From contig JANLPG010000095.1 of the NCBI GenBank assembly GCA_031367105.1, forward strand, positions 27,142 to 91,141: a stretch of 64,000 bases of DNA. The letters run 5' to 3'. The translations under genes and the position numbers were made by a program. Under the pieces are notes generated by a model. It did not search any database. It was not told the DNA's origin and saw nothing but the letters and a program-made list of their open reading frames with translations. This DNA comes from Gemmatimonadota bacterium. Lineage in GTDB: Bacteria; Gemmatimonadota; Gemmatimonadetes; Gemmatimonadales; GWC2-71-9. Below, piece after piece: positions 10,480-45,410 of this stretch; position 1 is the first letter of the stretch, and each line of letters opens with the position of its first letter.

Positions 10480-10490
10480 ATCAAGGAGCA

Positions 10491-10832: not shown

Positions 10833-10841
10833 GGTCGCGCG

Positions 10842-11288: not shown

Positions 11289-11377
11289 GCCACCTCGGGG
11301 ACGCCCTTGCGCCGCTGGGAGCCCTCGCCGGGGCCACGCTGCGACTCTGGCGACTGGAGGGGGAGCACTGGCACCTG

Positions 11378-12808
11378 GTGGCCGGCTCGACTTCGGGGGC
11401 CGACGCGCCGCGCGCGCCGCGCCAGGATGCTGCGGCGTGGCACGCCATCCCGGACGCTCCGGGTCATTTTCTCGAAATTCTCCCCGGCCCCGGTGCACGC
11501 GCCGACGATCTCGCTGCGAGGCTGCTCCCCGTGGTGCATCACCTGCTCGATGCCGATCGCAGTATCACCTCGCTCACCTACGAACTCGCGGCCCGCTACG
11601 AAGAGATTGACCTGCTCTACACCATTGGAGAATTGCTCGGTCACGCCCGGTCGGTCGACGAGGTTGCCTCGATCATTCTGCGCGAAGTCACCGCCGTCGT
11701 GGGGGCCCGTCGTGCCGGATTGCGGGTCTACCACGAAACCACCGGGATGCTGAGCACCGTGGCGACACTCGGGATGGCGGCGGGAGTGATTCCAGCGGAT
11801 ATTCACGTCGACGAGCCCGATACCGTCGTCGCCCGGGCCTTCCGTTCGGCGCAGATCGAAACCGGCGTCCAGCCACACTGGGTGCCGGGCGAAGTCCTTG
11901 CCGTGCCGATCAGCTACGCCGCCGCGGGGCAGCCGTCGCGAGTGGTCGGGACGTTGGCACTCGCCGACCGGGCGGGCGGCGGTTCGTTCACGCGCGAAGA
12001 GACCAAGTTGGTCGCGGCGGTCGCGACGCAGATCGGCGCCGCCCTCGAGAATGCTCGACTGGTCTCCCGCGAGCACGAACGGCAACGGCTGGAACGCGAG
12101 CTTGAACTCGCCCACGACCTGCAACTCCGGTTGATGCCCACCGCCGCGGTGTTGCGCGGCGAGGCCGATGTTGCAGTGCGCTCTGAAGCTGCGGAGTCGC
12201 TGGGTGGCGACTTCTACACCTTCTCCCGCCTCGGTCGCGGGCGGATCGGCGTGATGATGGGCGATGTTTCATCCCACGGATTCTCCGCGGCAATCATCGC
12301 TGCGCAAGTAATGGCAATGGCGGGGATTCACGCGAATTCGACCACACCACCCGACGAGACGCTCGCGCTGATGCACGACTCGCTGCGCGACGAACTGAGC
12401 AACACCGAGATGTACCTCTCGGTGTTCTACGGCATTCTCGATCCGACCGCGGGCCGGCTCACGTACACCAACGCGGGGCATCCCTATGCCTTCCGTGTAC
12501 CACGCTTCGGCGAACTCGAGCGGCTTGCCCCGACCGCACCGCCACTGGGCCTCGTCGATGCAGGCGGATTCGGACGACGGATCGTGCCGTGGCGCTTCAC
12601 TCAGGATCTACTGGTGCTGTTCACCGACGGAATGGTGGATCAGCAGGATGCGCACGGAGACCGCTTTGGGGAGCCGCGCCTGCTTGCACGCCTCGACGCC
12701 GAACGCCACCGGCCGCCGGCCGCACTGATGCAGTTGTTGCTCGATGAAGTCGCGACCTTCGGCGGTCGACCCACCGACGACCGCACCCTGCTCATCCTGC
12801 GGATGTAG
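11378..12808 (+). CDS. GAF-domain PP2C-type serine phosphatase (RsbU/SpoIIE family)
   Basis: 476 aa with an N-terminal GAF-like region and PP2C motifs GGDFYTF, GDVSSHG and FTDGMVD. The start is uncertain: GTG 11378 is the first ATG/GTG, but the frame stays open upstream to 11249. Confidence 0.85.
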   Translation: MAGSTSGADAPRAPRQDAAAWHAIPDAPGHFLEILPGPGARADDLAARLLPVVHHLLDADRSITSLTYELAARYEEIDLLYTIGELLGHARSVDEVASIILREVTAVVGARRAGLRVYHETTGMLSTVATLGMAAGVIPADIHVDEPDTVVARAFRSAQIETGVQPHWVPGEVLAVPISYAAAGQPSRVVGTLALADRAGGGSFTREETKLVAAVATQIGAALENARLVSREHERQRLERELELAHDLQLRLMPTAAVLRGEADVAVRSEAAESLGGDFYTFSRLGRGRIGVMMGDVSSHGFSAAIIAAQVMAMAGIHANSTTPPDETLALMHDSLRDELSNTEMYLSVFYGILDPTAGRLTYTNAGHPYAFRVPRFGELERLAPTAPPLGLVDAGGFGRRIVPWRFTQDLLVLFTDGMVDQQDAHGDRFGEPRLLARLDAERHRPPAALMQLLLDEVATFGGRPTDDRTLLILRM

Positions 12809-13679: not shown

Positions 13680-14315
13680 ATGCACTCTCGCAAGATCGCC
13701 GACTCCACGGTCCGCCGCTTGGCGATCTACCTGCGCTTTCTGGAGGAGTTCGACCATCAGGGGCAGGACACGCTCTCCTCCGACGCGCTGGCGCGGCGGG
13801 CGGGAACTACGTCGGCGCAGGTTCGGAAGGATCTTTCGTTCTTCGGATCGTTCGGCAAACGGGGACTGGGCTATGATGTACATGCGCTGGCCGAACGACT
13901 TCGCGAGATCCTCGGACTGGTGCGCCGCTACCGGGTCGTGCTGGTCGGGGCGGGGAGGCTCGCCGGGGCGTTGGTGAAATTTTCGGGATTTGGCGCACGG
14001 GGCTTCGACATCGTCGCCGTCGTCGACCAGGACCCCGCCAAGATTGGCAAGACGTGGGGCGCACTGGTCATTCAAGACGTGGTGAGGCTCGAAACGGTGG
14101 TGCGTGACGAACGGATCGACATCGCGATCCTGGTGACGCCGGGTGATCCTGCGCAGGGGCTCGTCGATCGCCTTGTCGCCGTCGGGGTCACCGCGATCCT
14201 CTCTTTCGCCCCCGTGCAGTTGCAGGTCCCCGATGGCGTCGACGTCAAGAATGTCAACCTCGCGATCGAGCTGGAGACACTGTCCTATTCACTGCAGCAC
14301 CGGGTGCACAAATGA
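13680..14315 (+). CDS. rex: redox-sensing transcriptional repressor Rex
   Basis: 211 aa with an N-terminal winged-helix RRLAIYLRFLEEF...SSDALA and a Rossmann motif VVLVGAGRLAGAL. Confidence 0.92.
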   Translation: MHSRKIADSTVRRLAIYLRFLEEFDHQGQDTLSSDALARRAGTTSAQVRKDLSFFGSFGKRGLGYDVHALAERLREILGLVRRYRVVLVGAGRLAGALVKFSGFGARGFDIVAVVDQDPAKIGKTWGALVIQDVVRLETVVRDERIDIAILVTPGDPAQGLVDRLVAVGVTAILSFAPVQLQVPDGVDVKNVNLAIELETLSYSLQHRVHK

Positions 14316-14322
14316 GGCAGGA

Positions 14323-15141
14323 GTGACCGGACTGACCGCCTATCCCAATGGCACGCTGGTGGAACGCGCGATCGAGCTGATGCAGGGCGGTGCGCTCGAC
14401 GCGGAGGTCATTGCGGCACGGGTGCTGGGGCTGCCCAATGCGCCACGCGCCGTTGCAGAACGACTCGCGACGGCGCTCCTCGGGTCCGACCCGCGGGTGC
14501 GGCAGCAGGCAAGTGGGGGCTGGGCGCTGGTCGTCGCGGCGCAGGGATCGCCACTCCTGGAACAATGTGCCTTCGCTGTCGTGGACGTCGAGACCACCGG
14601 GATGCACGCGTTGGGTGACGATCGAATCACCGAGATCGCGGTCGTGGTGGTCGAAGGAACCCGGCGGGAGGTCGTCTTCGACTCGCTGGTCAATCCCGGC
14701 CGCTCCATCCCTGGGCGCATCACCGAGCTGACTGGCATCTCGGATGCGATGGTCGCCACCGCGCCACTGTTCAGCCAGATCGCCGACCAGGTTGTGGCGG
14801 CGCTGGCGGGTCGTGTCTTCGTGGCACATAATGCGCGCTTCGACTGGGGCTTCGTAGGCGCTGAGGTCAAGCGGAGTCGAGACCTGGCGCTCGACGGCCC
14901 GCGCCTCTGCACGGTGCGCCTCGCCCGCCGACTGGTGCGCAACGAGCCCTCCTACTCGCTCGGTGCGCTTGCCGTGCGCTTCGGGCTCGAGTTCGCTGCG
15001 CGCCACCGTGCCGCCGGTGACGCGATGGTCACCGGGATGCTGCTGCAGCGCCTGCTCGACTCCGCGCGCGATCTGGGCGCGCACACGCTGGCCGAGCTCG
15101 AGCTGCTGCATCGCACGCCCGTCAGCGAGCTTCCGGGATGA
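14323..15141 (+). CDS. DnaQ-like 3'-5' exonuclease (DNA polymerase III epsilon family)
   Basis: ExoI motif FAVVDVETTG, ExoII FVAHNARFDWGF and ExoIII HRAAGDA. GTG 14323 is preceded by aggcaggag. The upstream part of the 14143 ORF overlaps rex. Confidence 0.85.
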   Translation: MTGLTAYPNGTLVERAIELMQGGALDAEVIAARVLGLPNAPRAVAERLATALLGSDPRVRQQASGGWALVVAAQGSPLLEQCAFAVVDVETTGMHALGDDRITEIAVVVVEGTRREVVFDSLVNPGRSIPGRITELTGISDAMVATAPLFSQIADQVVAALAGRVFVAHNARFDWGFVGAEVKRSRDLALDGPRLCTVRLARRLVRNEPSYSLGALAVRFGLEFAARHRAAGDAMVTGMLLQRLLDSARDLGAHTLAELELLHRTPVSELPG

Positions 15142-23135: not shown

Positions 23136-24022
23136 GTGGCCGCCTGCTCGATGGGGTGGCGATCGGTGCCGGCATTCGCGCGGAAGTGGCCGAAGGTGCC
23201 GCCGGATTGCGTGCGCGGGGGGTCGTTCCAGGACTGGCCGTCGTGCTCGTGGGTGAAAACCCCGCCTCGCAGATCTACGTGCGATCCAAGGGGAAGGCCT
23301 GCACGGAAGCCGGGATGCTTTCCGAGACCGTCCGCTTGCCGATCGATACCCCCGAGCTCGAGTTACTGGCCGTCATCGACCGACTCAACGCCGATCCCCG
23401 GATTCACGGGATCCTCTGTCAGCTACCGGTGCCGCCCCATATCGACACTGATAAGGTGCTCCGGCGGATCGATCCCGCGAAGGATGTCGATGGCTTCCAT
23501 CCCGTCAACGTGGGCAAGCTGGTTCTGGGCGACCCCACGGCGTTCCGTCCGGCCACCCCATTCGGCATTCAGCAGCTCCTGCTGCGCTCAGGCACCGAGA
23601 CGCGCGGTGCCCACGCGGTGATCGTCGGACGCTCGACGATCGTGGGGCGCCCGATGGCTTCGCTGCTGCTGCAGTCGGGCCCTGGCGGGGACGCCACCGT
23701 CACCGTCGCGCACTCACGCACGCGCGATCTGCCGGCGATCTGTCGCTCCGCCGACATCCTGATCGTCGCGATCGGTCGGGCACACTTCATCGGCGCCGAT
23801 GCGGTGAAGCCCGGCGCGACGGTGATCGATGTCGGGATCAACCGGATCGCCGACGCGACCCGTCCCAGCGGGTACCGGGTGGTAGGCGACGTCGATTTCG
23901 ATGCGGTGGTCGACAGCGTGGCCGCCATCACCCCGGTACCGGGTGGGGTGGGTCCGATGACCATCGCGATGCTGCTCGTCAATACGCTGCAGGCGGCGAC
24001 CCTGCAGGCCGGGAGCCGATGA
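23132..24022 (+). CDS. folD: bifunctional methylenetetrahydrofolate dehydrogenase/cyclohydrolase
   Basis: 296 aa with [47 protein letters not shown] and [14 protein letters not shown]. Confidence 0.95.
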
Positions 24023-25278
24023 CGGCGGTCGACGAGGCCTGGAGCGTCACGCGCCTCGCCCGCACCATCAAGCGTCGGGTCGAGGACGACTTTCCCGCCG
24101 TCTGGGTAAAGGGCGAACTGGTCGGCGTGAAACGCTACCCGAGCGGGCACTGGTACTTCGGGCTGCGCGATGCCGAGGCGAAAGTCGATTGCACGATGTG
24201 GAAGTTTGCCGCGGCGCGGCTGAAGGGACCGCTGGAGGAAGGAACCCAGGTGTTTGTCCTCGGCACCGTAAATGTATGGGAAGAGCGCACCGCGCTTCGT
24301 TTCAATGTCACGCAGGTGCTGCCCGCCTCGGGTGTCGGTGCCCAGGCGCAGGCGGTGGAACAGATCAAGCAACGGCTGCTCGCCGATGGGCTGCTGGATC
24401 CCGCGCGCAAGCGACCGCTTCCCCCCTATGCCACTCGGATTGCGGTGGTGACGTCGATTGCGGGCGCTGCAGTACGGGATATCATCACCGTTGCCGCGCG
24501 ACGCTGGCCAAGCGTGGAACTCCTGGTGGTGAACAGCGCGGTGCAAGGCGACGGAGCGCCCGCGGAACTGGTCGAAGCCCTCGGCATCGTTTCCCGCCTG
24601 GAGCGCCTTGATTGCTGCATCGTCGGGCGGGGCGGCGGTTCGAAGGAGGATCTCGCCGCTTTCAACGACGAAGCGGTCTGCCGGGCGATCGCCGCCTGCC
24701 CCGTGCCGGTTATCAGCGCCGTTGGCCACGAGGTCGATGTGACGCTTGCCGATCTGGTGGCAGACCTTCGCGCGGCGACCCCGTCCCAGGCCGCCGAGTT
24801 CGCCCTGCCGGATCGGCACGATGTCGCCGCGCGAGTCGCCGCGCTGCGCAGCGCATTCCTCTCGGCGACCCGCGACCAGGTGACCACCAGGCAGCAGCGA
24901 CTGCAGCGTACCCGCGAGCGGATGGGGAGCGCGTTGCTCGAGCGCCTGCGCGGAGTCGAGCGCCGCCTCCTCACTGCTCGCGGCCGACTCGCACCGGCGC
25001 TCGCCCGTCACGCGCACCGTCCCGGAGTTCGCCTGGCACAACTCGAGGGGCGTATCGCCCCCGCGATGCAGCGGCGGCTCGAGCGCGCACGCGCGACCAT
25101 TGGACGATGTTCGGCGCAACTCGACGCCCTCTCTCCACTGGCCGTGCTCGGTCGAGGGTATGCCGTCCCCCGCGACGAGAACGGCACGGTGCTGCGTCGT
25201 ACCGCAAACTTTCCGCCCGGCACGGCATTCACCTTGAGCATTTCCGACGGCCGCGTGGCCGCTCGGGTGGAGGACTGA
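24019..25278 (+). CDS. xseA: exodeoxyribonuclease VII large subunit
   Basis: 419 aa with an N-terminal OB fold ([24 protein letters not shown]), [16 protein letters not shown] and [15 protein letters not shown]. Confidence 0.93.
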
Positions 25279-25508
25279 TGGCTGACACACCGACATCACT
25301 CGACCAGGACCTGCGGCGGCTGGAGGAGATCGTTCGCAAACTCGAGGACGACGATCTGGCCCTCGAATCGGCCTTGCAGCTCTTCGAGGAGGGCGTCGGC
25401 CGCCTCAAGGCAGCGCAAGCGCGGCTCGGCGAGGCAGAGACCCGGGTGATGCAGGTGCTGAAGGACGCCGAAACGGGCGAGCTCCGGACCGAACCACTCG
25501 ATGGCTGA
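25278..25508 (+). CDS. xseB: exodeoxyribonuclease VII small subunit
   Basis: 76 aa with LRRLEEIVRKLEDDDLALESALQLFEEGVGRLKAAQARL. The ATG overlaps the xseA TGA by 1 nt. Confidence 0.9.
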   Translation: MADTPTSLDQDLRRLEEIVRKLEDDDLALESALQLFEEGVGRLKAAQARLGEAETRVMQVLKDAETGELRTEPLDG

Positions 25509-28381: not shown

Positions 28382-29197
28382 GTGCTGGCCGACACGGCCC
28401 GCCTCGCCTCCGAGCGCGGTTGGGCTCTGGCCGGCGACCCCGAACTCCAGTCGCTCTCTCCCGCTCCGCTCACACCGCTCGATCCCGATGCCATCGACCT
28501 GCTGGTGACCTTCGGTGGCGACGGCACGCTGCTCCGTGGCGCGCGGCGCCTGCAGGGGCGTGAAGTGCCGATTCTCGGCGTGAACTTCGGTCGGGTGGGG
28601 TTCCTCACATCGGTTGCCCGGGATGGTGCCGCGGACGCGCTGAGCGCGTTCGCCGCTGGAGAGCACCGCCTCTCAGTTCGGGCCGCGCTCCTGGCCACTG
28701 TCCGCGACGTCAATGGCGACGCCCGGGCCGACCTTGCCGCCCTGAACGATGTGGTGCTTCACAAGGGCGGTGTGGCGCGGGTGGTGCGCTTTCAGGTGCT
28801 GATCGACGGCGAGCCGATGGGACCGGTATCGGCCGATGGCCTGGTGGTTTCGACACCGACCGGGTCGACTGCCTATTCGCTCAGTGCGGGCGGGCCGGTG
28901 GTGGTCCCCAGTCTCGAAGCGATGGTCGTGACGCCGATCTGCGCGCATTCGCTTGGCGTCCGACCCCTGGTGGTCCGAGCGGACGCCGTGGTCACGGTCG
29001 ATCCACTCGACGCGCGGGTCAACGATATGCTCGTGTCGGTCGATGGACAGGAGACGGCGATGCTCGCGCCGGGCGAGCGGCTTGAGGTTCGTGCCGCGCC
29101 GTGGCGGGTGGTGCTGGTCCGCTTCGGGGAGCCCGGGTTCTTCCGGCGACTGCGAGAGAAGCTGCATTGGGGTGACCTCATCGACCGCGAGCAGTGA
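28382..29197 (+). CDS. nadK: NAD(+) kinase
   Basis: GGDGTLL motif, NDVVL and STPTGSTAYSLSAGGP. The true start is probably upstream (see finding): in-frame LRIGLVGNP precedes the first GTG/ATG. Confidence 0.88.
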   Translation: MLADTARLASERGWALAGDPELQSLSPAPLTPLDPDAIDLLVTFGGDGTLLRGARRLQGREVPILGVNFGRVGFLTSVARDGAADALSAFAAGEHRLSVRAALLATVRDVNGDARADLAALNDVVLHKGGVARVVRFQVLIDGEPMGPVSADGLVVSTPTGSTAYSLSAGGPVVVPSLEAMVVTPICAHSLGVRPLVVRADAVVTVDPLDARVNDMLVSVDGQETAMLAPGERLEVRAAPWRVVLVRFGEPGFFRRLREKLHWGDLIDREQ

Positions 29198-30858
29198 CAC
29201 TGCTCTCGCTCCGGGTCCGCGACCTCGCCACGGTCGCCGACGTGACCCTCGAACTTGCCGGTGGCCTCAACGTGCTCACCGGCGAGACCGGGGCAGGGAA
29301 GTCGATGCTGGTCGACGCGATCGCGCTGCTCCTCGGTGATCGCGCCGATCGCGCGGCGGTGCGCCCTGGCGCCGGCAAAGCCACGATCGAGGGTGTCTTC
29401 GACGCGGTGCCATCCGCCACCCGCCAGGCGCTCGAAACCGCGGGCCTTGACGCCGAGGAGTCGCTGATCCTTCGGCGGGAAGTGACCTCGGAAGGGCGGT
29501 CGCGCGCCTGGATCAACGGATCGCCTGCCACGATTGGTGCACTCGCCCGGCTGGGAGAGTCGCTCGTGGATCTGCACGGGCAGCATCAGACAGTCCAGTT
29601 GCTCGAGCCGGCGACACAGCGTGACCTGCTCGATGCCTTCGGCGATTCGCTCCCCGTGGCACGCGCCGTCGCCACGGCATTCGCGGAACTGCAGCTGCTT
29701 CGCCACCAGGCCGATGTGCTGGCAGCTCGGCGAGATGAGGCGCTGCGCCGTGCGGATTGGCTGCGCCACGTCATCACGGACATTGATACCGTGAAACCCC
29801 GCCCCGAGGAGGAGATCGCGCTTGACCGCGAGGTGCGCCGCCTCGGACACGCCAGCACGTTGGGCGAGCACGCCCGCGAGTTGCACGACGCACTCGACGG
29901 CGAGGAGGTCAGTGCCCGTGCCGCAATCGGGCGGGCCGAGCGGGCGCTGAACGCCCTCGAACGGCTCGATGGCACGGTGACGCCGTGGCGGGAGTTGCTC
30001 GACGCGGCCTACGCCCAACTCGACGAACTCGCCCGTGTCGCCGACAGGTACGCCAACGACCTCACCGAGGATCCCGGACGGCTGGATGCCCTCGAGCAGC
30101 GGCGGAATGCACTCGACGCGCTCCGGCAGAAACACGGCTCATCGCTCGAAGCGGTCCTCGCGACACGGGATGCGGCGCGCGCCGAGCTTGAACTGCTGGA
30201 CACCGCGGCATTCGATCTGCGCACCTTCGCGACGCGAATCGTGGCAGCAGAGTCAGCACTGACGCAGCTCGGCGCGGCGCTGACGCTCCGACGCCAACAG
30301 GCCGGTGAGCAGCTCGCCCGCGAAGTCAGTCGGCTACTGCCCCGGCTGGGGCTGGCGGGGGGTGAGCTGAGCGTTGCGCTGGATCCACTCGAGTCGGTCG
30401 GATCGAGTGGCACAGAACAAGTGACACTGATGATTCGATTGAATCGAGGGATGGCTGCGCAACCGCTGGCCCGGGTGGCCTCCGGAGGCGAACTCTCCCG
30501 ACTGATGCTCGCACTCAAGGTCGTGCTCGCGCGGCACGACGCCGTCCCGACGCTGGTCTTCGACGAAATCGATCAGGGAATCGGTGGCGAGGTGGGAGCT
30601 CGCGTCGGAGAGGCACTCAGTCAGATTGCGGCCGGCCATCAGGTCCTGGTGATCACACACCTGCCCCAGATCGCTGCGCGAGCGGACCATCACCTCCGCG
30701 TCGCGAAAGCCACGAGAAGCGGCATTGCGACCAGCGACGTCACGACGCTGCACGGGGAGGATCGGGTGCTGGAACTTGCCAGGATGCTGGGGGACGGAGA
30801 AGACGACGCCGCGCGGCGGCTGGCAGTCTCACTACTCCGCGGCGCGACTACTGGCTGA
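29194..30858 (+). CDS. recN: DNA repair protein RecN
   Basis: 554 aa with N-terminal Walker A GETGAGKSMLVDA, a long coiled coil, a C-terminal SMC signature ASGGELSRLMLAL and Walker B LVFDEIDQGIGG. Confidence 0.94.
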   Translation: MTLLSLRVRDLATVADVTLELAGGLNVLTGETGAGKSMLVDAIALLLGDRADRAAVRPGAGKATIEGVFDAVPSATRQALETAGLDAEESLILRREVTSEGRSRAWINGSPATIGALARLGESLVDLHGQHQTVQLLEPATQRDLLDAFGDSLPVARAVATAFAELQLLRHQADVLAARRDEALRRADWLRHVITDIDTVKPRPEEEIALDREVRRLGHASTLGEHARELHDALDGEEVSARAAIGRAERALNALERLDGTVTPWRELLDAAYAQLDELARVADRYANDLTEDPGRLDALEQRRNALDALRQKHGSSLEAVLATRDAARAELELLDTAAFDLRTFATRIVAAESALTQLGAALTLRRQQAGEQLAREVSRLLPRLGLAGGELSVALDPLESVGSSGTEQVTLMIRLNRGMAAQPLARVASGGELSRLMLALKVVLARHDAVPTLVFDEIDQGIGGEVGARVGEALSQIAAGHQVLVITHLPQIAARADHHLRVAKATRSGIATSDVTTLHGEDRVLELARMLGDGEDDAARRLAVSLLRGATTG

Positions 30859-32416
30859 CGAGTGCCTTGTAGACCCGGAACACCAGCCGGGAGGTCAGTC
30901 GCGCCGGAACCACGCCGCTCCCACTGAAGACCGTGCGCTCAATTGAGAGGCCCGCTTCCACCGGCATCCGCAAGATCCCGTCGCGGTGCCGGCCATCGTG
31001 TACGTAGCTGAAACCCAGTCCGATAATCGTCGCGTCCGACGCGGTCCCCCCATCCAGCAAGTTGGCTGCGGCGCCGGCGACGGGAGTCTGCCCCGTCACG
31101 TACCTCGTCGCATCGGCGCCCCGTCTCCGATATGAGACCAGCCCGGCAAGTGCAAGTCGCGGCGCGACCCGGAAAAACGGTTGCGCGGTGATGGTCAGGA
31201 TATCGCCGGGATCCCGGCGGACGGCGGCACGTCGGTAGGCCGGCACCAGGAGCTGGTCGCGACTCGCCACTCGGGTAAATCGATCCGACGCGAGTTGTAT
31301 CGTATAGCGCCCCTCCGCGCGCAGCCCCAGCCGATGGCGACCGAGTTCCAGTATGCCCGCGACTTCGGCGTCGATCTGCCGGTCGCCCGTGCCTTGGTCA
31401 AGGAGGTATTGCGGGCGAGGCAGCTGACCGGTGCGAAGCCGGCCTACCCCCTGGAGCCAGAGCCCCAACCAGCTTGGATCACCGGCTCGGCCGTGTTGAA
31501 TCAGCTCGGCGGTGATGCCACCTTCCATATCACCCAGCGCGACCAGCGGCTTGTCCTCTGGAGCGAGAACGCCAAAGCCGCTCGGCGAGCCGAGCAGTGC
31601 ATCGAAGCCCGCCGCATTCAGCGGAGCGGATGGCAGGGCGGGGGCGCTGGAAAATCCCGGGATCCCGAGCGACGTAGTAAAGGTGCTTCTCACGCCGGCA
31701 ACGCGCGCGAGCAGTGCGGAGCCGTCGGCACTGCGCTCAGTCGGAAGGACCACGCTCGCCAGTGCGCTGTCGGCGAACAGCGTGTACAGCGTGTTGCGGA
31801 GTAGAGGCGCCTCGGTCAGGGTCTGCTGGGCCAGCGCCTGCGCTGCAGGATTGCTGACATAGTCACCGCGGCTGAATCGGGTGGTCAAGCTGGCGATCGC
31901 TGCATCGAACTCGGTGAAGAAGGCAGTGGTTCGCGCCCGTCCCGCAGGATCGCCGATGTTTGGATCGGCGGGATTGATCCCGACCGTCGCGCCGAGCGGG
32001 TCATAGGTCGTGCGGCGTTGGGTGCGGACCGAAACAATCGGCACCGTCCCGAAGAGCGTGATCCGGCGGGTCAGGCCAAGCGCCAGCCCGATCGTCGCCG
32101 TACCACGCTGGTGCTCGGCGATTGTGGTGAGTCCACCGAGGGCGGTCGGAGCCGCTGGGCGCCCGAGGATCTCGGAGAGGCGCGATTCGAGATCGCCGAG
32201 CAATGGCGTCGTTGTGGACGTCAGCGCCGCAATGGTCAGGGGCGACCCGAGGTCACGCTTGGTTCCATCAATCCACGCGGAGGTGGCGGGGGCGAACGCA
32301 CCGCCGAACTCGATCCGCACGGTACCACGCGGCGCCGTGAGGAGTGGGAGCTGGGCTGTGAGCCGGGTTGTGGGCAACCAGACCAGCAGGAGCAGGAGGG
32401 GGGCTCGGACTCTCAT
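30848..32416 (-). CDS. hypothetical secreted / outer-membrane-like protein
   Basis: Start set at MRVRAPLLLLLVWLPTTRLTAQ (signal-peptide-like). The longer 32527 start would overlap the tRNA. 522 aa, Gly/Thr/Ala/Arg-rich with alternating-hydrophobic stretches in the C-terminal third (beta-barrel-like). No motif recognised. Confidence 0.6.
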   Translation of the reverse strand: MRVRAPLLLLLVWLPTTRLTAQLPLLTAPRGTVRIEFGGAFAPATSAWIDGTKRDLGSPLTIAALTSTTTPLLGDLESRLSEILGRPAAPTALGGLTTIAEHQRGTATIGLALGLTRRITLFGTVPIVSVRTQRRTTYDPLGATVGINPADPNIGDPAGRARTTAFFTEFDAAIASLTTRFSRGDYVSNPAAQALAQQTLTEAPLLRNTLYTLFADSALASVVLPTERSADGSALLARVAGVRSTFTTSLGIPGFSSAPALPSAPLNAAGFDALLGSPSGFGVLAPEDKPLVALGDMEGGITAELIQHGRAGDPSWLGLWLQGVGRLRTGQLPRPQYLLDQGTGDRQIDAEVAGILELGRHRLGLRAEGRYTIQLASDRFTRVASRDQLLVPAYRRAAVRRDPGDILTITAQPFFRVAPRLALAGLVSYRRRGADATRYVTGQTPVAGAAANLLDGGTASDATIIGLGFSYVHDGRHRDGILRMPVEAGLSIERTVFSGSGVVPARLTSRLVFRVYKALVSQ

Positions 32417-32475
32417 CCCGGGGAAAGGTAGCGGGAGGCGCGACGGCCGGCGCTGTGGCATATTGTTCGCAGTCG

Positions 32476-32558
32476 GCTCGGGTGGCGGAATGGCAGACGC
32501 AGGGGTCTTAAACACCCCAGGGGGCAACCCCGTGCGGGTTCGAATCCCGCCCCGAGCA
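32476..32558 (+). tRNA. tRNA-Leu (anticodon UAA)
   Basis: Acceptor gctcggg/cccgagc plus discriminator a, and a D-arm GTGGCGGAATGGCAGACGC like known tRNA-Leu. Anticodon stem-loop ggggt-CTTAAAC-acccc, long variable arm, T-arm gcggg-TTCGAAT-cccgc. CCA is not encoded. Confidence 0.9.
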
Positions 32559-32587
32559 CTTGACTACCCATTGTGGAGAATCGACGA

Positions 32588-33040
32588 ATGCAAAACGCCC
32601 GGCGTGGTTTTACGCTCATCGAGCTGCTGACCGTTATCACGATCATCGGGATTCTGGCGACCGTCGGCTTCCCCAAGCTGCAGGCCACCAAAATGAAGGC
32701 GACCCGCGCCTCGATGGTGTCGGATCTGCGGAATCTGGTCAGTGCGCAGGAAGCGTTCTTCTCGACCTACGCCGACTACGCCGGCTCGATCACATCGGGT
32801 GCAGACGTCGCCGGGTCGCCCTCCAGCTCCGGCGCGCTCGCTTTTCGGCTTAGCCCAGGCAACGCGATCGTCCTTTCCCGGATGAGCCCGAACAGCGCGA
32901 CCGGCCCGGGATGGACTGCGACGATCACCAACCCCGCGATCGCAAATACCACGTTCACGACGTGTGGGATTTTTATCGGATCGATCACCTATTCGCCGAA
33001 TGCTGCCGTCACGCGCGAAGGGACGCCGACCTGCTACTGA
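32588..33040 (+). CDS. type IV pilin (prepilin-type N-terminal cleavage/methylation domain)
   Basis: MQNARRG|FTLIELLTVITIIGILATV is a class III signal peptide with Gly-1, Phe+1 and Glu+5. C-terminal Cys pair TCGIF...PTCY (D-region). SD GGAGA lies 8 nt before ATG 32588, and the track start 32573 is a GTG inside the SD. Confidence 0.9.
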   Translation: MQNARRGFTLIELLTVITIIGILATVGFPKLQATKMKATRASMVSDLRNLVSAQEAFFSTYADYAGSITSGADVAGSPSSSGALAFRLSPGNAIVLSRMSPNSATGPGWTATITNPAIANTTFTTCGIFIGSITYSPNAAVTREGTPTCY

Positions 33041-33540
33041 ACCGGCGAAGGAATCTGTCGCAACGCGTCGCCGAGAAACGAGTCGGCCGACATACGGTCG
33101 CTGAGTCGGAGTACGGTGCCATCGACGGATCCGGAAATCTGGTAGTCGGCTTCGGTGGTACGCTCGTACTGGACACCCGTTTCCACGGCGCCTGCCTCAC
33201 GCAGCGACTCCGGCAGCCTGCCCTTCGCCGCCCGGTAAGCCTCGACGCGTCCGCGTTGCAAAAAGATGGCGTAGCGCATCCTGGCTTCCCGCTGAACCGC
33301 CGAGAGGGTGATGCGCGGAGGTCCGCCGAAGAGGAACGCCGGACGCGCAACCCAGGCATAGCCGATGAAGCCCCACGCGGCGACGATGAAAAGCAACAGT
33401 CCGGGCTGGTACATGATGTGGGCCTCCCGCTCCTTCCTGGCCGCCCGGATGTGGCGGAGCTCGCCCTCGGACACCCGCTGGGAATCCAGCACGTCCCGGA
33501 GTGCCTCGCCCAGCTCGTGCTGTGGCTTTCGGTCGGTCAT
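33034..33540 (-). CDS. hypothetical bitopic membrane protein, paralog A
   Basis: 168 aa: about 45-aa charged N-terminus, one TM (PGLLLFIVAAWGFIGYAWV), about 100-aa C-terminal domain. Clear paralog of 34047..34571 (REARMRYAIFL...RLPESLREAG...SADSFLGDAL). Confidence 0.65.
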   Translation of the reverse strand: MTDRKPQHELGEALRDVLDSQRVSEGELRHIRAARKEREAHIMYQPGLLLFIVAAWGFIGYAWVARPAFLFGGPPRITLSAVQREARMRYAIFLQRGRVEAYRAAKGRLPESLREAGAVETGVQYERTTEADYQISGSVDGTVLRLSDRMSADSFLGDALRQIPSPVQ

Positions 33541-33605
33541 CGCTCAGCGCCTCGATGGTTTCAATGGTTGCATTTGGTCCCGTCTCGGAGCGAGAATCCC
33601 GCCTG

Positions 33606-34043
33606 ATGACTTCCGCCCGCTCACTACCCACTTCGGTCGCACCGCCGTGGCAGTTCACGCTGATGAGCCTGACCGGCCTCGGTGCCGCCGCCATCCTCTG
33701 GATGCTGATCTCCAGCGGGATTGCCCGGCACAATGATACCCGTCGACACGCCGCCCTCCGGACGGAACTGCAGCGCCTCGACCAGGCCCAGTCGAGCGTT
33801 TACGCTAACAATGGGCGATTCGCAGCCTCACTCTCGACGGCGTCGGACGGAACCGGGCTTGGCTTCACGCCGACCTCCGGGTTGCAGATCGATTTTGAGG
33901 CGCTCTCGACCGAGGCGTGGCGCGCCACGGTTCGAGATACCACGCTGACGAGCGGACCCGCCAGCTGTGGAATTTTCCGAGGACCACCCGAGGCCTCCCC
34001 GCACCGCTCGGTGGTGATACCCGGGGTGATCGGCTGCTGGTGA
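33606..34043 (+). CDS. divergent pilin-like protein lacking canonical prepilin cleavage motif
   Basis: 145 aa. ...PPWQFTLMSLTGLGAAAILWMLI resembles G|FTLIEL but has Trp-Gln in place of Gly-1 and Ser at +5. The globular part aligns with the 32588 pilin, including SCGIFRGP...IGCW versus TCGIFIGS...PTCY. Confidence 0.6.
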   Translation: MTSARSLPTSVAPPWQFTLMSLTGLGAAAILWMLISSGIARHNDTRRHAALRTELQRLDQAQSSVYANNGRFAASLSTASDGTGLGFTPTSGLQIDFEALSTEAWRATVRDTTLTSGPASCGIFRGPPEASPHRSVVIPGVIGCW

Positions 34044-34046
34044 GGC

Positions 34047-34571
34047 TCACGGTCGTCGCAACTCGCTGAGGCTTTCCCCCAGAAAGGCATCCGCCGATCC
34101 GCTGCTCGTCAGCTTGACGCCCACCGCGTCCTCGCTGCCCACTAATTCGTAGCTTCGCTCGCCCGTCACGATCAGTTGAATCGTTGGATCGCCCACACCC
34201 GCTTCGCCCAGGAACGATGGCAAGCGCTTGTTCGTCGTCAGGAAGCGCCGCACCGCGCCATCGGCCAGCCAGACGCCGTAGCGGAGCGAGGCCTCCCGCC
34301 GGGCGAGGGGGGACGACCACGGCTGCCCGACGGGGGCCGAGACGAAGCCGGGCCGGAACACGACCAGCGCCGCGACGGTCAGCCAGGTGAGCAGCGCGGC
34401 CGCGAGCCACCCGCCAGAGGCGAAGGCAGGCGCATCGGGAGTCAGTGCACCGGCGCGCTGTGCTTCGATGTGTTCGAGTACCTCGGCCTGGATCTGCTCC
34501 AGCAGTCCCGCAGAGTCCGGGAGCGATCGTGGCCCCCCGAACGCAGGGCCGACACTCGAACCGCTAGCCAT
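34047..34571 (-). CDS. hypothetical bitopic membrane protein, paralog B
   Basis: 174 aa with the same architecture as paralog A (TM WLAAALLTWLTVAALVVF; REASLRYGVWL...RLPSFLGEAG...SADAFLGESL). 8-nt overlap (ATGGCTAG) with the upstream receiver gene. Confidence 0.65.
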   Translation of the reverse strand: MASGSSVGPAFGGPRSLPDSAGLLEQIQAEVLEHIEAQRAGALTPDAPAFASGGWLAAALLTWLTVAALVVFRPGFVSAPVGQPWSSPLARREASLRYGVWLADGAVRRFLTTNKRLPSFLGEAGVGDPTIQLIVTGERSYELVGSEDAVGVKLTSSGSADAFLGESLSELRRP

Positions 34572-34944
34572 CCTGGGGCGACTCGCCGGCCAGCGCCTTC
34601 AGCACCTGCTCCGGGAAGAGCCGGATGTCGATCGGCTTCGTGATATAGCCATCGAAACCCGCCGATATCGCCTTCTCGCGGTCACCCGACATTGCGTGCG
34701 CGGTGAGGGCGATGACGCGGAGATCCCGGAAGTCCGAGGCACGGATTTCGGCAAGGAGGGCAAAGCCGTCCTTCCCAGGCATCTGGATATCCATCAGGAC
34801 GAGCTCTGGCCGTCCTGCGGCGAGCGTGGCGAACAATTCCTCGCCCCCAGGCAAGCCGTGTACCTCGTGGCCTTTCAGGGTCAGCACGGTCCGGAAGAGC
34901 TTCATATTGTCGGGGCTGTCCTCGACGATCAGGATCTTGGCCAC
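34564..34944 (-). CDS. single-domain response regulator (CheY-like receiver)
   Basis: 126 aa: ILIVEDSPDN, phospho-acceptor context LVLMDIQMPGKDG, ALTAHAM and GYITKP. GTG start 2 nt after the upstream ATPase stop. Confidence 0.9.
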   Translation of the reverse strand: MAKILIVEDSPDNMKLFRTVLTLKGHEVHGLPGGEELFATLAAGRPELVLMDIQMPGKDGFALLAEIRASDFRDLRVIALTAHAMSGDREKAISAGFDGYITKPIDIRLFPEQVLKALAGESPQDG

Positions 34945-34946
34945 GG

Positions 34947-37109
34947 CTATTCAATCCTTGTGCGCTTGAGAACGGCCTTGACTCGGGCCACGAGCGAACG
35001 GGGCTGGACCGGCTTGGTCAGATAGTCCTGGGCGCCCAGGTCGAGTGCCTGACTTTCGGTGTCATCGGTCCTGGCGGTGAGCATGATCACCGGCAGTCCG
35101 GCGGTCGAAACCTGCGCCCGCAACTCCTCCAGCACGCCAAGCCCGGTCAGGCGAGGCATATCGTGGTCGAGCAGGACCAGGTCGATCCCGTGGGTATCGA
35201 TGGCCTCGAGGGTTTCGAGACCGTCGGTTGCTTCGAGCACCTTGAAGCCCTCGCGCTCCAACACGGTGCGCAGCAGCCGGCGCATCTGTGCATCATCGTC
35301 CGCCAGCAGGATGGTCGCTCCGGCACCGTCGGGGGAGGTGGTCGTCGGTTCGCGTGCGGGAGGCCGCTTGGTCGTCGCCATCGCCGCCTCGGTCGGTGTC
35401 TGTTCCACGGCGCCGCGGTCGGTGTCTCCCAGCACTCGCCGCACTTCCTCGAAGGACGTCACGCCCAGCCAGAACCGGACCAACCCGCTCTGCCAGAGGG
35501 TGCGCATACCGAACGGGACGGCGGCCTCGAGGATCTGAGCCTGCGGTGCGCCCGTCTCGATCAATCTCCCCACCGTTCCTTCGACGGGCAGTAACTCCAT
35601 CACCGCGACGCGCCCCTTGAATCCGCTGCCGCTGCAGCTTTTGCACCCCGGGGCCCGGCGCGGCGCAAACTTTCCTGCATAGCTCGCAGGAGGCCGCCCC
35701 GCCTCCGGGATCTCTTCGAACGGCATTGGTTCCGCGCACCGCTCGCACAGCCGGCGGACGAGACGCTGGGCCAGAATCCCCTTGAGCACGGTGCCGATCT
35801 TGAACGAATCCACTCCCATATCGCGCAGGCGCACAATGGCAGAGACGGCATCGTTCGTGTGCAACGTCGAGAAGACAAAATGTCCGGTGAGTCCCGCCTG
35901 AATCGCGATGGTCGCAGTCTCCCCATCGCGGATCTCGCCGACGAGCACGATGTCGGGATCCTGGCGCAGCACCGATCGAAGGGCAGTGGCAAAGGTGAAT
36001 CCCTGCGCTTCGTTCACCTGCATCTGTGAGATGCCATCGACATCGTACTCCACCGGATCTTCGACGGTCACGATGTTGACGCGACCGGTCTTCAGATGAT
36101 TCAGGACGGCGTAGAGCGTGGTCGTCTTGCCGGATCCGGTTGGGCCGGTGACCAACAGCATTCCTTCGCGGTGCCCCAGCATCCGCATCAGCACTTCTTC
36201 TTCGTCGGCGGGGAGCAGGAGCTCGGGGATGGACGCCCGGAGGTTCGACTTGCTCAGGATACGGATCACCAGCTTCTCGCCTCGACGTGCCACGGGCGCG
36301 GTGGCGACGCGAAGATCGACCTGTTGTCCGTCCACCCGGGCGCTACTGCGGCCGTCCTGGGGAGTCATCGAGTTGGTGACATCGAGCCCGGACACGATCT
36401 TGACACGGCGCACGAGCGAGGGGCCTGCCGCCTCGGGCAGTCGCATGACTTCACGGAGGATGCCGTCGACGCGGTACCGCACGACCACGTGGGGACCCTC
36501 GATTTCTGCGTGTACGTCGCTGGCGCCGATCCGCACCGCATCAGCAATCATTGCGTCCACCAGTTTTGACATCGGGGCATCCAGCGCCGGATCACGATCC
36601 TCCACGTCGAGCTGGAGATCGAGTTCGATCGAGGCCGGAGCGAGCCCTTGCAACAGCCGGTTGATGCTGTTTTCCGGTCGGTAGTATTCATCCAGCTTCT
36701 CGGCGATCGCGCTGGGCGAGGCGACCTCGAGCAGGACGTCTCGACCGGTGAGGAAGCCAAGGCTCTGCTCGGCGGAGAGGTCGTTGGGGTCGGCGGTCGC
36801 GAGGCGGACGCTACGCTCATCGAGGGCGAGCGGCACGACGTGGTATTTTCGAGCAGCTGCCTCGGGGAGTACCGCGGTCGCACGCGCATCGATGGTGGCG
36901 AGGTCCGCAATCGGCAGCCGGAACCGGGTGGCGAGCAGCCGGATGATGTCGCTGTCGGTTGTGAACCCCGCATCGACCACGCTCGACCAGAGCCTCCCCT
37001 TGCCGCCAGACTTGAGGGTCGCAACCTGCGCTTCCGGCAACAACCCACCTTCGATCAGGTGGGCTGCCAGCCAGGCGTCGGGGAACGTCGTGGACGCAGG
37101 TGAGGTCAT
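34947..37109 (-). CDS. PilB/GspE-family secretion ATPase with N-terminal T2SSE_N-like domain and C-terminal receiver (REC) domain
   Basis: Start at MTSPASTTF (ATG 37109). Walker A GPTGSGKTTTLY, Asp box VEDPVEY, Walker B DPDIVLVGEIRD, His box STLHTNDA and tetra-Cys CERC...CKSC. After a Thr/Pro linker, REC is ILLADDD...LVLLDHDMPRLTG...MLTARTD...LTKP (about 34950-35321). Confidence 0.88.
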   Translation of the reverse strand: MTSPASTTFPDAWLAAHLIEGGLLPEAQVATLKSGGKGRLWSSVVDAGFTTDSDIIRLLATRFRLPIADLATIDARATAVLPEAAARKYHVVPLALDERSVRLATADPNDLSAEQSLGFLTGRDVLLEVASPSAIAEKLDEYYRPENSINRLLQGLAPASIELDLQLDVEDRDPALDAPMSKLVDAMIADAVRIGASDVHAEIEGPHVVVRYRVDGILREVMRLPEAAGPSLVRRVKIVSGLDVTNSMTPQDGRSSARVDGQQVDLRVATAPVARRGEKLVIRILSKSNLRASIPELLLPADEEEVLMRMLGHREGMLLVTGPTGSGKTTTLYAVLNHLKTGRVNIVTVEDPVEYDVDGISQMQVNEAQGFTFATALRSVLRQDPDIVLVGEIRDGETATIAIQAGLTGHFVFSTLHTNDAVSAIVRLRDMGVDSFKIGTVLKGILAQRLVRRLCERCAEPMPFEEIPEAGRPPASYAGKFAPRRAPGCKSCSGSGFKGRVAVMELLPVEGTVGRLIETGAPQAQILEAAVPFGMRTLWQSGLVRFWLGVTSFEEVRRVLGDTDRGAVEQTPTEAAMATTKRPPAREPTTTSPDGAGATILLADDDAQMRRLLRTVLEREGFKVLEATDGLETLEAIDTHGIDLVLLDHDMPRLTGLGVLEELRAQVSTAGLPVIMLTARTDDTESQALDLGAQDYLTKPVQPRSLVARVKAVLKRTRIE

Positions 37110-37145
37110 CGGGGTCCGTGGGCAGCAGTGGCTCGGGGGCCGTGG

Positions 37146-37174
37146 TTGTTCACCACGTCGGGGAAAGATACGAT
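37146..37174 (+). promoter_or_regulatory. candidate sigma70-type promoter for aroA-cmk(-rpsA)
   Basis: TTGTTC (37146-37151), 17-nt spacer, TACGAT (37169-37174), in the divergent region between the ATPase gene and aroA. Confidence 0.3.
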
Positions 37175-37226
37175 TCCGTGGCTCGATTTCACCCCTGTCG
37201 CCCCCAGTCGGAGTTCGATTCCCTTC

Positions 37227-43881: not shown

Positions 43882-45410
43882 CAGCTGGGGAAGTACGGCG
43901 TGTCCTGATTGCCAACCGCGGCGAGATCGCGCTGCGCATCATCCGCGCCTGCCGTGATGAAGGGCTTGAATCGGTGGCGGTCTATTCCGAGGCGGATCGC
44001 CACGCCCCCTTTGTGCGCGCCGCCGACCTTGCCGTGCCGATCGGCCCTTCCGCTCCCTCCCAGAGTTATCTCGAGATCGCCCGACTCCTCGAGGCGGCGC
44101 GGATCAGCGGCGCCCAGGCGATTCACCCCGGCTACGGCTTCCTCTCCGAACGCGCCGCGTTTGCGCAGGCCGTGGTCGACGCCGGTCTGGTGTTCGTCGG
44201 ACCGCCGGCAAGCGCCATCGCGGCGATGGGCGACAAGACCAGCGCCCGTCGGTTGATGGCCGCCGCCGGCGTCCCGATCGTGCCGGGCGGCGTCAGTGCC
44301 GTGACCAACCCTGCCGAGGCGGCGATCCTGGCTGGGGACCTCGGCTATCCGGTGCTGGTAAAGGCTGCCGCTGGCGGGGGCGGGAAGGGGATGCGGGTGG
44401 TGAGGCATCCCGCGGAGCTGCCGGCGGCACTGACCACGGCGGCGAGCGAAGCGCTGAAAGCGTTCGGGGATGGCAGCGTCTATCTCGAGAAGTACATCGA
44501 GTTGCCGCGACACGTCGAAATTCAGGTGCTGGCGGACCACGAGCGCACCATCCACATCGGAGAGCGCGAGTGTTCGGTGCAACGCCGCCACCAGAAACTG
44601 GTCGAGGAGGCACCGTCGGTGGCCGTCGATCAGTCGCTGCGCGAGCAGATGGGTGCCGCCGCAGTTGCGGCGGCGACGGCCGTGGGATATCGCGGTGCGG
44701 GCACCTGCGAGTTTCTCCTCGCGTCGGACGGCTCCTTCTACTTTCTCGAAATGAATACGCGGATCCAGGTCGAGCACCCGGTGACCGAGGAGGTCTACGG
44801 CGTCGATCTGGTGCGCGAGCAGCTCCGCATCGCTCGTGGCCTGCCCATGTCGGTTCCTCTCGGGCCACTGTCGCCCCGCGGCTGGTCGATCGAGTGTCGC
44901 ATCACCAGTGAAGACCCTGCCAACGGACTGTTGCCGAGTTCGGGGGTGATCCGCTGGCTGCGCGCTCCGTCGGGGGCAGGTGTCCGCTGGGATAGCGGCG
45001 TGGAAAGTGGCAGTGAGGTCACGCTGTTCTACGACTCGATGCTCGCCAAATTGATCGTTCGGGGTGCCACGCGCACCGAAGCGATCGACACGATGCGACG
45101 CGCCCTCGATGAGCTGATGGTGGTGGGAGTCGCCACGAATATTCCGTTTCACAGGCGGCTCTTCAACGACGCGGAGTTTGTGGCGGGCGCAATCGACATC
45201 CAGTTCCTGGAGCGGCGTGGCGATCTGCTCGCCAGTACGGACGACGACGCCACCTTGCAGCGGCTCGCCGTGACCGCGGCACTGCTTGAGCAGGAGCGGC
45301 GCGGCAGCCGGCGACCGGTGGGCCGACAGGGTGGCGAGGCCCGAACCGATCGCGCGGCACCGAATGCGCCTGGATGGCGTGATGCCGCGCGGCGCGAAGG
45401 GCTGCGATGA
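43878..45410 (+). CDS. accC: biotin carboxylase subunit (acetyl/propionyl-CoA carboxylase alpha, BC part only)
   Basis: 510 aa: VLIANRGEIALRIIRAC, ATP-grasp GYPVLVKAAAGGGGKGMR, EMNTRIQVEHPVTE. No biotinyl domain on this polypeptide. Confidence 0.92.
   Translation: MTAGEVRRVLIANRGEIALRIIRACRDEGLESVAVYSEADRHAPFVRAADLAVPIGPSAPSQSYLEIARLLEAARISGAQAIHPGYGFLSERAAFAQAVVDAGLVFVGPPASAIAAMGDKTSARRLMAAAGVPIVPGGVSAVTNPAEAAILAGDLGYPVLVKAAAGGGGKGMRVVRHPAELPAALTTAASEALKAFGDGSVYLEKYIELPRHVEIQVLADHERTIHIGERECSVQRRHQKLVEEAPSVAVDQSLREQMGAAAVAAATAVGYRGAGTCEFLLASDGSFYFLEMNTRIQVEHPVTEEVYGVDLVREQLRIARGLPMSVPLGPLSPRGWSIECRITSEDPANGLLPSSGVIRWLRAPSGAGVRWDSGVESGSEVTLFYDSMLAKLIVRGATRTEAIDTMRRALDELMVVGVATNIPFHRRLFNDAEFVAGAIDIQFLERRGDLLASTDDDATLQRLAVTAALLEQERRGSRRPVGRQGGEARTDRAAPNAPGWRDAARREGLR

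Follow-up and report, generated by a model that had tools for sequence, protein, structure and literature searches.

A receiver-fused PilB-like ATPase, two pilins and a pilin-coupled membrane protein family between recN and aroA of Gemmatimonadota

What is a pilus motor ATPase with an attached receiver domain doing among housekeeping genes, next to two pilins and two membrane proteins of no known family, and where is the rest of the machine? This question is raised by a block of genes between recN and aroA in a 64 kb stretch of one Gemmatimonadota genome (contig JANLPG010000095.1; GC content 66%), here termed the window, which forms the basis of this analysis. The initial annotation had taken the block for an accessory island holding either a minimal, self-contained pilin-based apparatus or a regulatory satellite of a pilus locus elsewhere. 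We arrive at another reading: the block is probably the ancestral pilB-pilA locus of the Gemmatimonadota type IVa pilus (T4aP), the core machine of which would be encoded elsewhere. Two of its components, a phylum-conserved receiver-fused PilB and a new family of pilin-coupled membrane proteins, appear to be undescribed; in the literature that could be searched we found no direct description of a PilB-receiver fusion or of a Gemmatimonadota T4aP gene inventory.

The gene content, gene order and alternating strands first described for the interval between recN and aroA were reproduced with open reading frames (ORFs), ARAGORN, Pfam, NCBIfam and Rfam. The parts are as follows (window coordinates; aa, amino acids; REC, receiver domain):

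29194-30858, + strand: recN, one flank of the block; aroA is the other
30848-32416, - strand: 522-aa signal-peptide protein of a family without a name; no Pfam, NCBIfam or PDB match
32476-32559, + strand: tRNA-Leu(UAA); ARAGORN and Rfam (58.4 bits)
32588-33040, + strand: canonical type IVa-style prepilin, 150 aa; N_methyl E = 2.8e-8
33034-33540, - strand: bitopic accessory protein A, 168 aa; no known family
33541-33605, no strand: divergent intergenic region between the genes for A and the pilin-like protein, 65 bp; read from the sequence
33606-34043, + strand: degenerate pilin paralog ("pilin-like protein"), 145 aa; BLASTP to the pilin, E = 5e-9
34047-34571, - strand: bitopic accessory protein B, 174 aa; paralog of A
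34564-34944, - strand: stand-alone CheY-like REC, 126 aa; Response_reg E = 8.7e-27
34947-37109, - strand: PilB-REC, 720 aa; MshEN 1.6e-17, T2SSE 1.2e-118, Response_reg 5.4e-30

The motor ATPase and its receivers

As judged from its translation, PilB-REC is a PilB-like ATPase with complete catalytic motifs, to which a flexible C-terminal linker attaches a phosphorylatable OmpR/PhoB-like receiver. Pfam places an MshEN/T2SSE_N domain at 36672-36923, the ATPase core at 35436-36581 and REC at 34977-35312, the latter two being joined by a Pro/Thr/Ala-rich linker of ~40 residues; both the T2SSE core (PF00437, E = 1.2e-118) and the N-domain (PF05157, E = 1.6e-17) are recognised. The translation contains a Walker A motif (GPTGSGKTT), an Asp box (VEDPVEY), a Walker B motif (DPDIVLVGEIRD) and a His box (GHFVFSTLHTN), as well as a tetracysteine (C4) zinc motif of the type CxxC...CxxC (CERC...CKSC). 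The best matches among PDB sequences are the T4aP PilB proteins of Geobacter and Myxococcus, which align over the full length with E = 1e-115 to 1e-118 and score slightly better than GspE. The NCBIfam models yield 489.8 bits for PilB (cut-off 675.65) and 485.6 bits for GspE (cut-off 630.25).

The fusion of the ATPase with a receiver, as initially reported, is genuine, and both receivers of the block keep all phospho-acceptor residues. Of the 120 database clusters closest to it (59-100% identity), at least 117 have the same fusion, and every named one belongs to the Gemmatimonadota. Among the NCBIfam models the fused receiver is nearest to OmpR/PhoB-type receivers. The equivalents of D13, D57, T87 and K109, numbered as in CheY, are invariant in an alignment of the fused and the free receivers. 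Stop and start codons overlap at 34944-34947 (PilB-REC/REC) and at 34564-34571 (REC/B), and the three genes are therefore translationally coupled.

In the mechanism we propose, a histidine kinase or a chemosensory system would phosphorylate the fused receiver, and the phosphorylated receiver would then govern, in cis, the switching or the localisation of the extension motor, which PilG- or PixG-type regulators do in trans elsewhere. The free receiver would compete as a sink for phosphate or would be an antagonist. In addition, it is retained in pilus-less junctions of related genomes (loci L006, L024 and L025) and probably has a role beyond the pilus module. Two other related loci (L001, 429-2384; L004, 1-1200) encode a multi-PAS protein of 651-678 aa, with other domains in addition, inserted beside rpsA, a few kb from the pilus module; this protein, which is not in the window, is a candidate sensor kinase for the receivers.

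The MshEN receptor motif for cyclic di-GMP (c-di-GMP) consists of a tandem RLGxxLVxxGILxxxxLxxxLxxQ with a 5-residue spacing (PMC7288161). Upon comparison by eye, residues 13-62 of PilB-REC (WLAAHLIEGGLL...; RLWSSVVDAGFT...) do not contain this motif: other residues stand in place of Arg/Gly in motif I and of Gly/Gln in motif II, with 2 residues as the spacer. The extreme N-terminus of the protein (residues 1-62; window 36970-37109) resembles tandem MshEN repeats. In PilB-REC, phosphorelay may have taken over from c-di-GMP as the means of control.

Pilins and their membrane-anchored partners

The canonical prepilin carries a class III signal peptide (N_methyl E = 2.8e-8; TIGR02532 E = 1.2e-8). 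Its N-terminus reads MQNARRG/FTLIELLTVITIIGILA (the slash separates positions -1 and +1), with a leader of 7 residues and with Gly-1, Phe+1 and Glu+5 in the motif RRG/FTLIELL. The best NCBIfam model is Myxococcus PilA (1.4e-11), which covers the N-terminal part, and the C-terminus bears the cysteine pair Cys126...Cys149. The pilin-like protein is a true paralog of this pilin (BLASTP E = 5e-9), with which it shares the head and the C-terminal cysteines. Its N-terminus reads PPWQ/FTLMSL, with Gln at -1 and Ser at +5, and it has neither a class III signal peptide nor an N_methyl match. The degenerate motif was read in 7 orthologs and the window copy; all 7 ortholog N-termini follow PPW-x-F-x-L and lack Gly-1 and Glu+5. 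Four more pilin-like ORFs were recovered, the N-termini of which are outside this motif count. From these sequences, the pilin-like protein is predicted to be uncleaved and to stay in the membrane. Outside the subclade with the degenerate pilin (L010, L012, L014, L016) both pilins are canonical.

Accessory proteins A and B are true paralogs (32% identity, E = 4e-17) and, as initially supposed, represent an unrecognised family rather than PilN, PilO or GspM. Neither protein matches Pfam or NCBIfam at E <= 0.1, and profile searches of the family against PDB sequences returned nothing. A profile search of 1.84 billion representatives yielded 727 cluster representatives of the family at E <= 1e-3 and 300 at E <= 1e-10; a word-index search found 17 relatives only. 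The sole taxon name among the distant members is Gemmatimonadota (n=1). None of 100 diverse family members matches the relevant Pfam families (PilN, PilO, GspL, GspM, FimV), and an assignment to PilN, PilO, GspM or GspL was ruled out by Pfam, NCBIfam, PDB profiles and Foldseek, where none of these is among the top 50.

An AlphaFold2 model of A consists of a charged cytoplasmic helix (residues 6-42), a transmembrane helix (~46-65), a linker and a periplasmic domain. Modelled alone, the periplasmic domain reaches a predicted local distance difference test (pLDDT) of 91 and a predicted template modelling (pTM) score of 0.82, and it is composed of a 26-residue helix, a three-stranded antiparallel sheet and two short helices. 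A fold search with the whole protein was uninformative, the helix orientations being uncertain. With the domain, the top Foldseek match is the Shewanella pilin 4d40_A (probability 0.97, TM score 0.56/0.60, root mean square deviation 3.2 Å over 77 columns; E >= 0.18), and other non-significant top matches are Neisseria PilE and Thermus TTHA1222; type IV pilins make up most of the highest ranks. In hhalign, the A/B family aligned to the local pilins puts the helix of A on alpha1-C with a probability of 4.9%. A "pilin-head-like" domain, as suggested by these models, is a lead and not an established fold. Within the family, sequence conservation is centred on the periplasmic domain and is lowest in the cytoplasmic segment.

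The co-occurrence of the family with pilins, which the initial annotation had proposed to test, holds throughout: a pilin or pilin-like gene directly follows 34 of 34 A/B-family genes in 19 distinct loci. The two genes are mostly convergent and are co-directional in L012 and L023. The partner of a B-type copy is always a pilin-like (degenerate) gene, and that of an A-type copy is a canonical pilin with the motif GFT(L/I)IEL. In the window, the convergent 3' ends of A and the pilin overlap by 7 nucleotides (33034-33040; TGC TAC TGA on one strand, TAG on the other), and the 3' end of B lies 3 nucleotides from that of the convergent pilin-like gene (34043-34047). The 7-nucleotide overlap is kept in at least 7 other loci; L001, L003, L004, L007, L008, L011 and L015 have this overlap or the 3-nucleotide gap at the same positions. 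Convergent ends of this kind leave no space for terminators, and it may be through convergent transcription or antisense overlap that the ratio of accessory protein to pilin is fixed.

Within the block, neither consensus sigma-70 sites nor terminators exceed chance. The 65-bp region between the divergent genes for A and the pilin-like protein (33541-33605), which has no consensus sigma-70 site either, presumably holds the promoters of both. The start codon of the canonical pilin gene follows the 3' end of tRNA-Leu by 28 nucleotides. The corresponding gap measures 25-30 nucleotides in nine loci (the window, L001, L003, L004, L008, L013, L014, L020 and L021), which share a conserved Shine-Dalgarno sequence and have no space for a promoter; the close spacing is not seen in L011, L012, L022 and L023. 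A conserved, -10-like CATATT is located ~8 nucleotides before tRNA-Leu (window 32456-32600 and relatives). This arrangement suggests, at the level of sequence, that tRNA-Leu and the pilin form a co-transcript, for which tRNA-tufB operons are a precedent. A sigma-54 promoter before the pilin was also considered and dismissed: the pattern count is at chance, and the one match nearby, at 32456-32471, overlaps CATATT, which resembles a -10 box of the tRNA.

The aroA/recN junction across Gemmatimonadota

Is the block a genomic island? The notion of an accessory island had to be given up, as the block has a normal GC content, no repeats and no mobility genes and occupies the same site across the sampled phylum. 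Its composition profile (GC 0.62-0.70) resembles that of the flanks. Searches for att-like sites, flanking direct and inverted repeats, tRNA-fragment duplications and PADLOC systems gave nothing that supports an island at the block, and Pfam and NCBIfam identified no mobility genes within it. All named homologues are from Gemmatimonadota. In every module-bearing junction examined the module resides at the same aroA/recN site, namely in L001, L003, L004, L007, L008, L010-L015, L020, L022 and L023, with PilB-REC identities to the window from 90% down to 59%; narrower alignment queries retrieved 4 genome loci and 9 metagenome loci.

The arrangement differs among these loci, which carry one or two accessory+pilin pairs, with REC before or after the pairs. 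A single A/B copy is present in L011, L022 and L023, and in L023 all four genes point the same way, as a single operon. The junctions devoid of the module, L006 (9491-11611), L024 (6504-8569) and L025 (6588-8644), contain REC, tRNA-Leu and the 522-aa gene only. In rough neighbour-joining trees of two gene pairs (recN+nadK and aroA+cmk), these three loci constitute one clade, sister to L011 and nested among module-bearing lineages, and therefore point to a single secondary loss. In L011, PilB-REC, accessory and pilin genes are contiguous and followed by REC; given this gene order and the nested clade, the pattern is explained by a single deletion that removed three adjoining genes. The patchy distribution expected of a genomic island is thus not seen, with one loss inferred in the sampled phylum. 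The pilus module is ancestral at the junction, and REC, tRNA-Leu and the 522-aa protein make up its invariant frame. Away from the junction, the 75-kb contig L016 harbours two accessory+pilin pairs among unrelated flanking genes and without an ATPase; the accessory+pilin pair is therefore the minimal unit.

The components evolve at two different rates. Among the closer loci L001-L010, PilB-REC is 72-89% and the free REC 69-95% identical, as compared to 80-92% for dxs, 60-75% for aroA and 64-79% for recN; the ATPase and the receiver are thus conserved like dxs and more than aroA or recN. Over all loci compared, the identity of the free REC is 68-95%. The pilin (48-76%), A (40-64%), B (50-57%) and the pilin-like protein (38-60%) diverge fast and together in the same closer loci. 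By this measure of sequence conservation, PilB-REC is a functional, strongly constrained motor and not a remnant.

The frame genes deserve a separate comment. The 522-aa protein is 100% identical to the database protein P0018 and belongs to a Gemmatimonadota-wide family of at least 61 clusters (33-100% identity), which has no Pfam, NCBIfam or PDB match, whether the protein is taken singly or as a family of 35 sequences. Its two ends are rich in Gly, its middle in Ala/Leu. Of the earlier label "OMP-like" the signal peptide was verified and nothing beyond it. Its gene adjoins recN in all junctions, including the pilus-less L006, L024 and L025, and the stop regions of the two genes always overlap. 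Likewise, every locus keeps tRNA-Leu(UAA) at the junction; in the window it is divergent from the 522-aa gene. L012 (14422-16003) and L023 (13528-15124), which have diverged most, contain genes for the polyphosphate kinase PPK2 and a LOG/lysine-decarboxylase-like protein after the pilin and before tRNA-Leu; these genes are on the same strand as the tRNA and part the 522-aa gene from the pilin. The 522-aa protein is part of the invariant frame of the junction, and its membership of the pilus module is putative.

The remainder of the window consists of + strand housekeeping genes, in agreement with the initial annotation. The Pfam scan covered most ORFs of ~150 aa or more, and the 17-26 kb interval was covered by synteny with annotated relatives. 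Minus-strand ORFs at 10371-11171, 14254-15111 and 23569-25299 were discarded as shadows of + strand genes. Amid the housekeeping genes lies a partner-switching module (10842-12808), made up of an RsbW/SpoIIAB-like anti-sigma serine kinase (HATPase_c_2, 10842-11288) and, after it, a GAF-SpoIIE/PP2C phosphatase (11378-12808). The ORF at 10343-10744, upstream of the kinase gene, has no Pfam match. In the spacer between pilB and aroA, ARAGORN called a tRNA-Asn (37121-37202), which we rejected as a false positive, with nothing in Rfam even at E <= 1. A further ARAGORN call, tRNA-Ile at 44218-44296, has no Rfam support at the gathering threshold. Both calls show odd anticodon positions and are likely false positives in GC-rich DNA.

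Explanations and known systems

How, then, would the locus work? The scanned ORFs of the 64 kb window include no PilC, PilD, PilM, PilQ or histidine kinase, which for the Pil proteins confirms what was first noticed. A canonical prepilin needs a prepilin peptidase and an assembly machine; neither is in the locus, and both would therefore lie elsewhere. In our preferred reading, PilC, PilD, PilMNOPQ and PilT would be encoded at other sites and would use PilB-REC and the canonical pilin. Type IV pilus genes occur in Gemmatimonadota of all environments but the marine one (PMC10581226). PilM has a mean abundance of 0.83 and 0.95 in two environment groups, equal to ribosomal proteins (PMC10581226 supplement, SIMPER table), GspE, GspD and GspF are annotated in many genomes of the phylum (PMC10581226 supplement, SEED table), and PilY1 homologues are present (PMC13190605). 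The earlier idea of a regulatory satellite is thus retained in one respect, in that the locus would serve machinery elsewhere; it fails in the other, as the locus is the one of the main motor and the major pilin.

Within this scheme, A and B would be inner-membrane-anchored, pilin-specific accessory proteins, functionally analogous to TfpY/FimB of Pseudomonadota. Through their pilin-head-like periplasmic domain they would bind the cognate pilin while it is in the membrane pool, and so assist in priming or stabilising assembly. The accessory+pilin pair would have been duplicated in the lineage; in one subclade, the second pilin would have lost its cleavage site and Glu5, become membrane-retained and co-diverged with a B-type partner, such that the degenerate pilin would stay anchored in the membrane together with B.

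Several points weigh against this interpretation. PilC, PilD, PilM-Q and PilT are not seen in the 64 kb, their presence being deduced from phylum-level tables, and a kinase partner for the receivers is not in the window either. PilB-REC scores below the TIGR02538 equivalog cut-off, and NCBIfam does not separate PilB from GspE. A second, unfused PilB may exist outside the flanks examined. The free REC and the 522-aa protein, retained without pilus genes, may serve another function. The case for a TfpY-like role of A and B is made by gene position and topology, and the pilin-like fold has no statistical support (best Foldseek E 0.18, hhalign probability 4.9%).

The same parts could belong to a second system, namely a dedicated ATPase and its subunits for a competence pilus or a pseudopilus resembling that of type II secretion systems (T2SS), which would share PilC, PilD and the secretin with a canonical twitching pilus encoded elsewhere with its own unfused PilB and major pilin. 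Several PilB/GspE paralogs are common in many bacteria, the NCBIfam scores for PilB and GspE (489.8 vs 485.6 bits) are both below cut-off, the pilin N-terminus also matches the GspG and ComGC models of NCBIfam, and SEED lists GspE, GspF and GspD in many Gemmatimonadota genomes. We nevertheless deem a second system unlikely: the best full-length matches of the ATPase are T4aP PilB and not GspE, the pilin (mature ~143 aa) resembles T4a major pilins in its short leader and C-terminal disulfide, the ATPase is as conserved as housekeeping genes and sits at a locus fixed throughout the phylum, and none of the flanks examined contains a second pilB. Far less probable still is the self-sufficient minimal apparatus of the initial annotation, in which A/B would stand in for PilMNO and the PilC platform, the 522-aa protein would substitute for the secretin, and phosphorelay would directly drive the resulting novel pilin-based machine. 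A and B are indeed bitopic paralogs like PilN/PilO or GspL/GspM, B is translationally coupled to the ATPase operon, and the 522-aa signal-peptide protein of no known family is always near. Yet the locus offers a canonical prepilin and no prepilin peptidase, L011, L022 and L023 manage with a single A/B copy, L016 has accessory+pilin pairs without an ATPase, and PilM is near-universal in the phylum. Moreover, the 522-aa protein persists without pilus genes and is set apart from them in L012 and L023, and A/B share neither sequence nor fold with PilN, PilO, GspL, GspM or PilC.

Two further proposals concern A and B. They might be regulators, either pilin-pool sensors, resembling the sensing of PilA by PilS in Pseudomonas, or anti-sigma-like proteins, with the cytoplasmic helix signalling pilin occupancy to receivers or to transcription. 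The charged cytoplasmic helix of ~40 residues and the translational coupling of B to the CheY-like REC would fit such a role, and strict pairing with pilins suits a pilin-binding sensor as well as a chaperone. This proposal is rather improbable in view of the cytoplasmic segment being the least and the periplasmic domain the most conserved part, the lack of a signalling domain recognisable by Pfam or NCBIfam, and the L016 pairs without receivers nearby. About as improbable is a bolder version, according to which A and B are membrane-anchored pilin mimics that put pilin supply directly under two-component signalling, phosphorylation gating the hand-over of pilin to the motor. Here, the variable cytoplasmic helices of A/B would dock the phosphorylated CheY-like REC and/or the PilB-fused receiver, and the non-cleavable pilin and B would form a permanent membrane complex serving as a primer or sensor. 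If true, this would be a phosphorelay-gated pilin-delivery device without a described counterpart.

For the preferred reading of an ancestral T4aP motor and pilin locus, the annotation of Gemmatimonadota genomes would gain directly: "hypothetical proteins" at a fixed, recognisable locus become a defined pilus module instead of an island, and through the A/B family ~700 hypothetical-protein clusters acquire a testable role.

Compared with PilB of Geobacter (5TSG/5ZFR) and Myxococcus (3JC8), PilB-REC has the same N-terminal domains, ATPase core, full set of ATPase motifs and C4 zinc motif, but it possesses an additional linker of ~40 residues with an OmpR/PhoB-like REC and lacks a canonical MshEN c-di-GMP motif. 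Two receivers tied to the extension motor are also a feature of PilG/PilH in Pseudomonas and of PixG/PixH and TaxP1/TaxY1 in Synechocystis. In these systems, antagonistic receiver pairs control pilus extension and polarity, and CheY-like proteins act on PilB in trans (PMC10519157; bioRxiv 10.1101/2021.06.11.447907; PMC11181946). Unlike in these systems, one receiver of the block is fused to PilB and the other is a single-domain protein of the same operon; no gene for a PATAN domain, CheA or a chemoreceptor lies near the block, and antagonism is postulated here. The switching of the extension motor by CheY-like proteins is still debated for PilG/PilH and the cyanobacterial PixG/TaxP1. A phylum with a receiver covalently attached to PilB provides a natural and genetically simple test system, consisting of one polypeptide and one aspartate.

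Like PilN/PilO and GspL/GspM, A and B are small bitopic inner-membrane proteins (N-in, C-out) that come as paralogous pairs in type IV filament systems. In contrast, they adopt in the models a helix-beta-beta-beta fold with short helices instead of the ferredoxin-like (alpha-beta-beta)x2 fold, vary in copy number from one to two, and their genes track pilin genes and not pilM. A closer parallel in gene layout is the pilin cassette of P. aeruginosa, which is also bordered by a tRNA gene. There, as in the block, pilB and the major pilin gene are neighbours, and TfpY, TfpX, TfpZ and FimB, the family of which is reported in Pseudomonadota only, are encoded like A/B by a small membrane-anchored accessory gene that lies beside the pilin and diverges with it (PMC11841053). 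TfpY differs by three transmembrane helices in ~235-245 aa, as opposed to one helix in ~170 aa, and by an extra mixed-sheet domain that the A/B models do not show; its genes are located downstream of the pilin behind a terminator, whereas those of A/B are convergent, often with the 7-nucleotide 3' overlap (PMC11841053). No NCBIfam match connects A/B with TfpY, TfpX, TfpZ or FimB, from which they are set apart by model search and description. The model of the periplasmic part of TfpY likewise shows a helix that leads into an antiparallel sheet of three strands (PMC11841053). A/B would stand beside TfpY/FimB as a second, unrelated family of pilin-coupled accessory proteins, which suggests that pairing each pilin with its own membrane protein is a recurrent solution.

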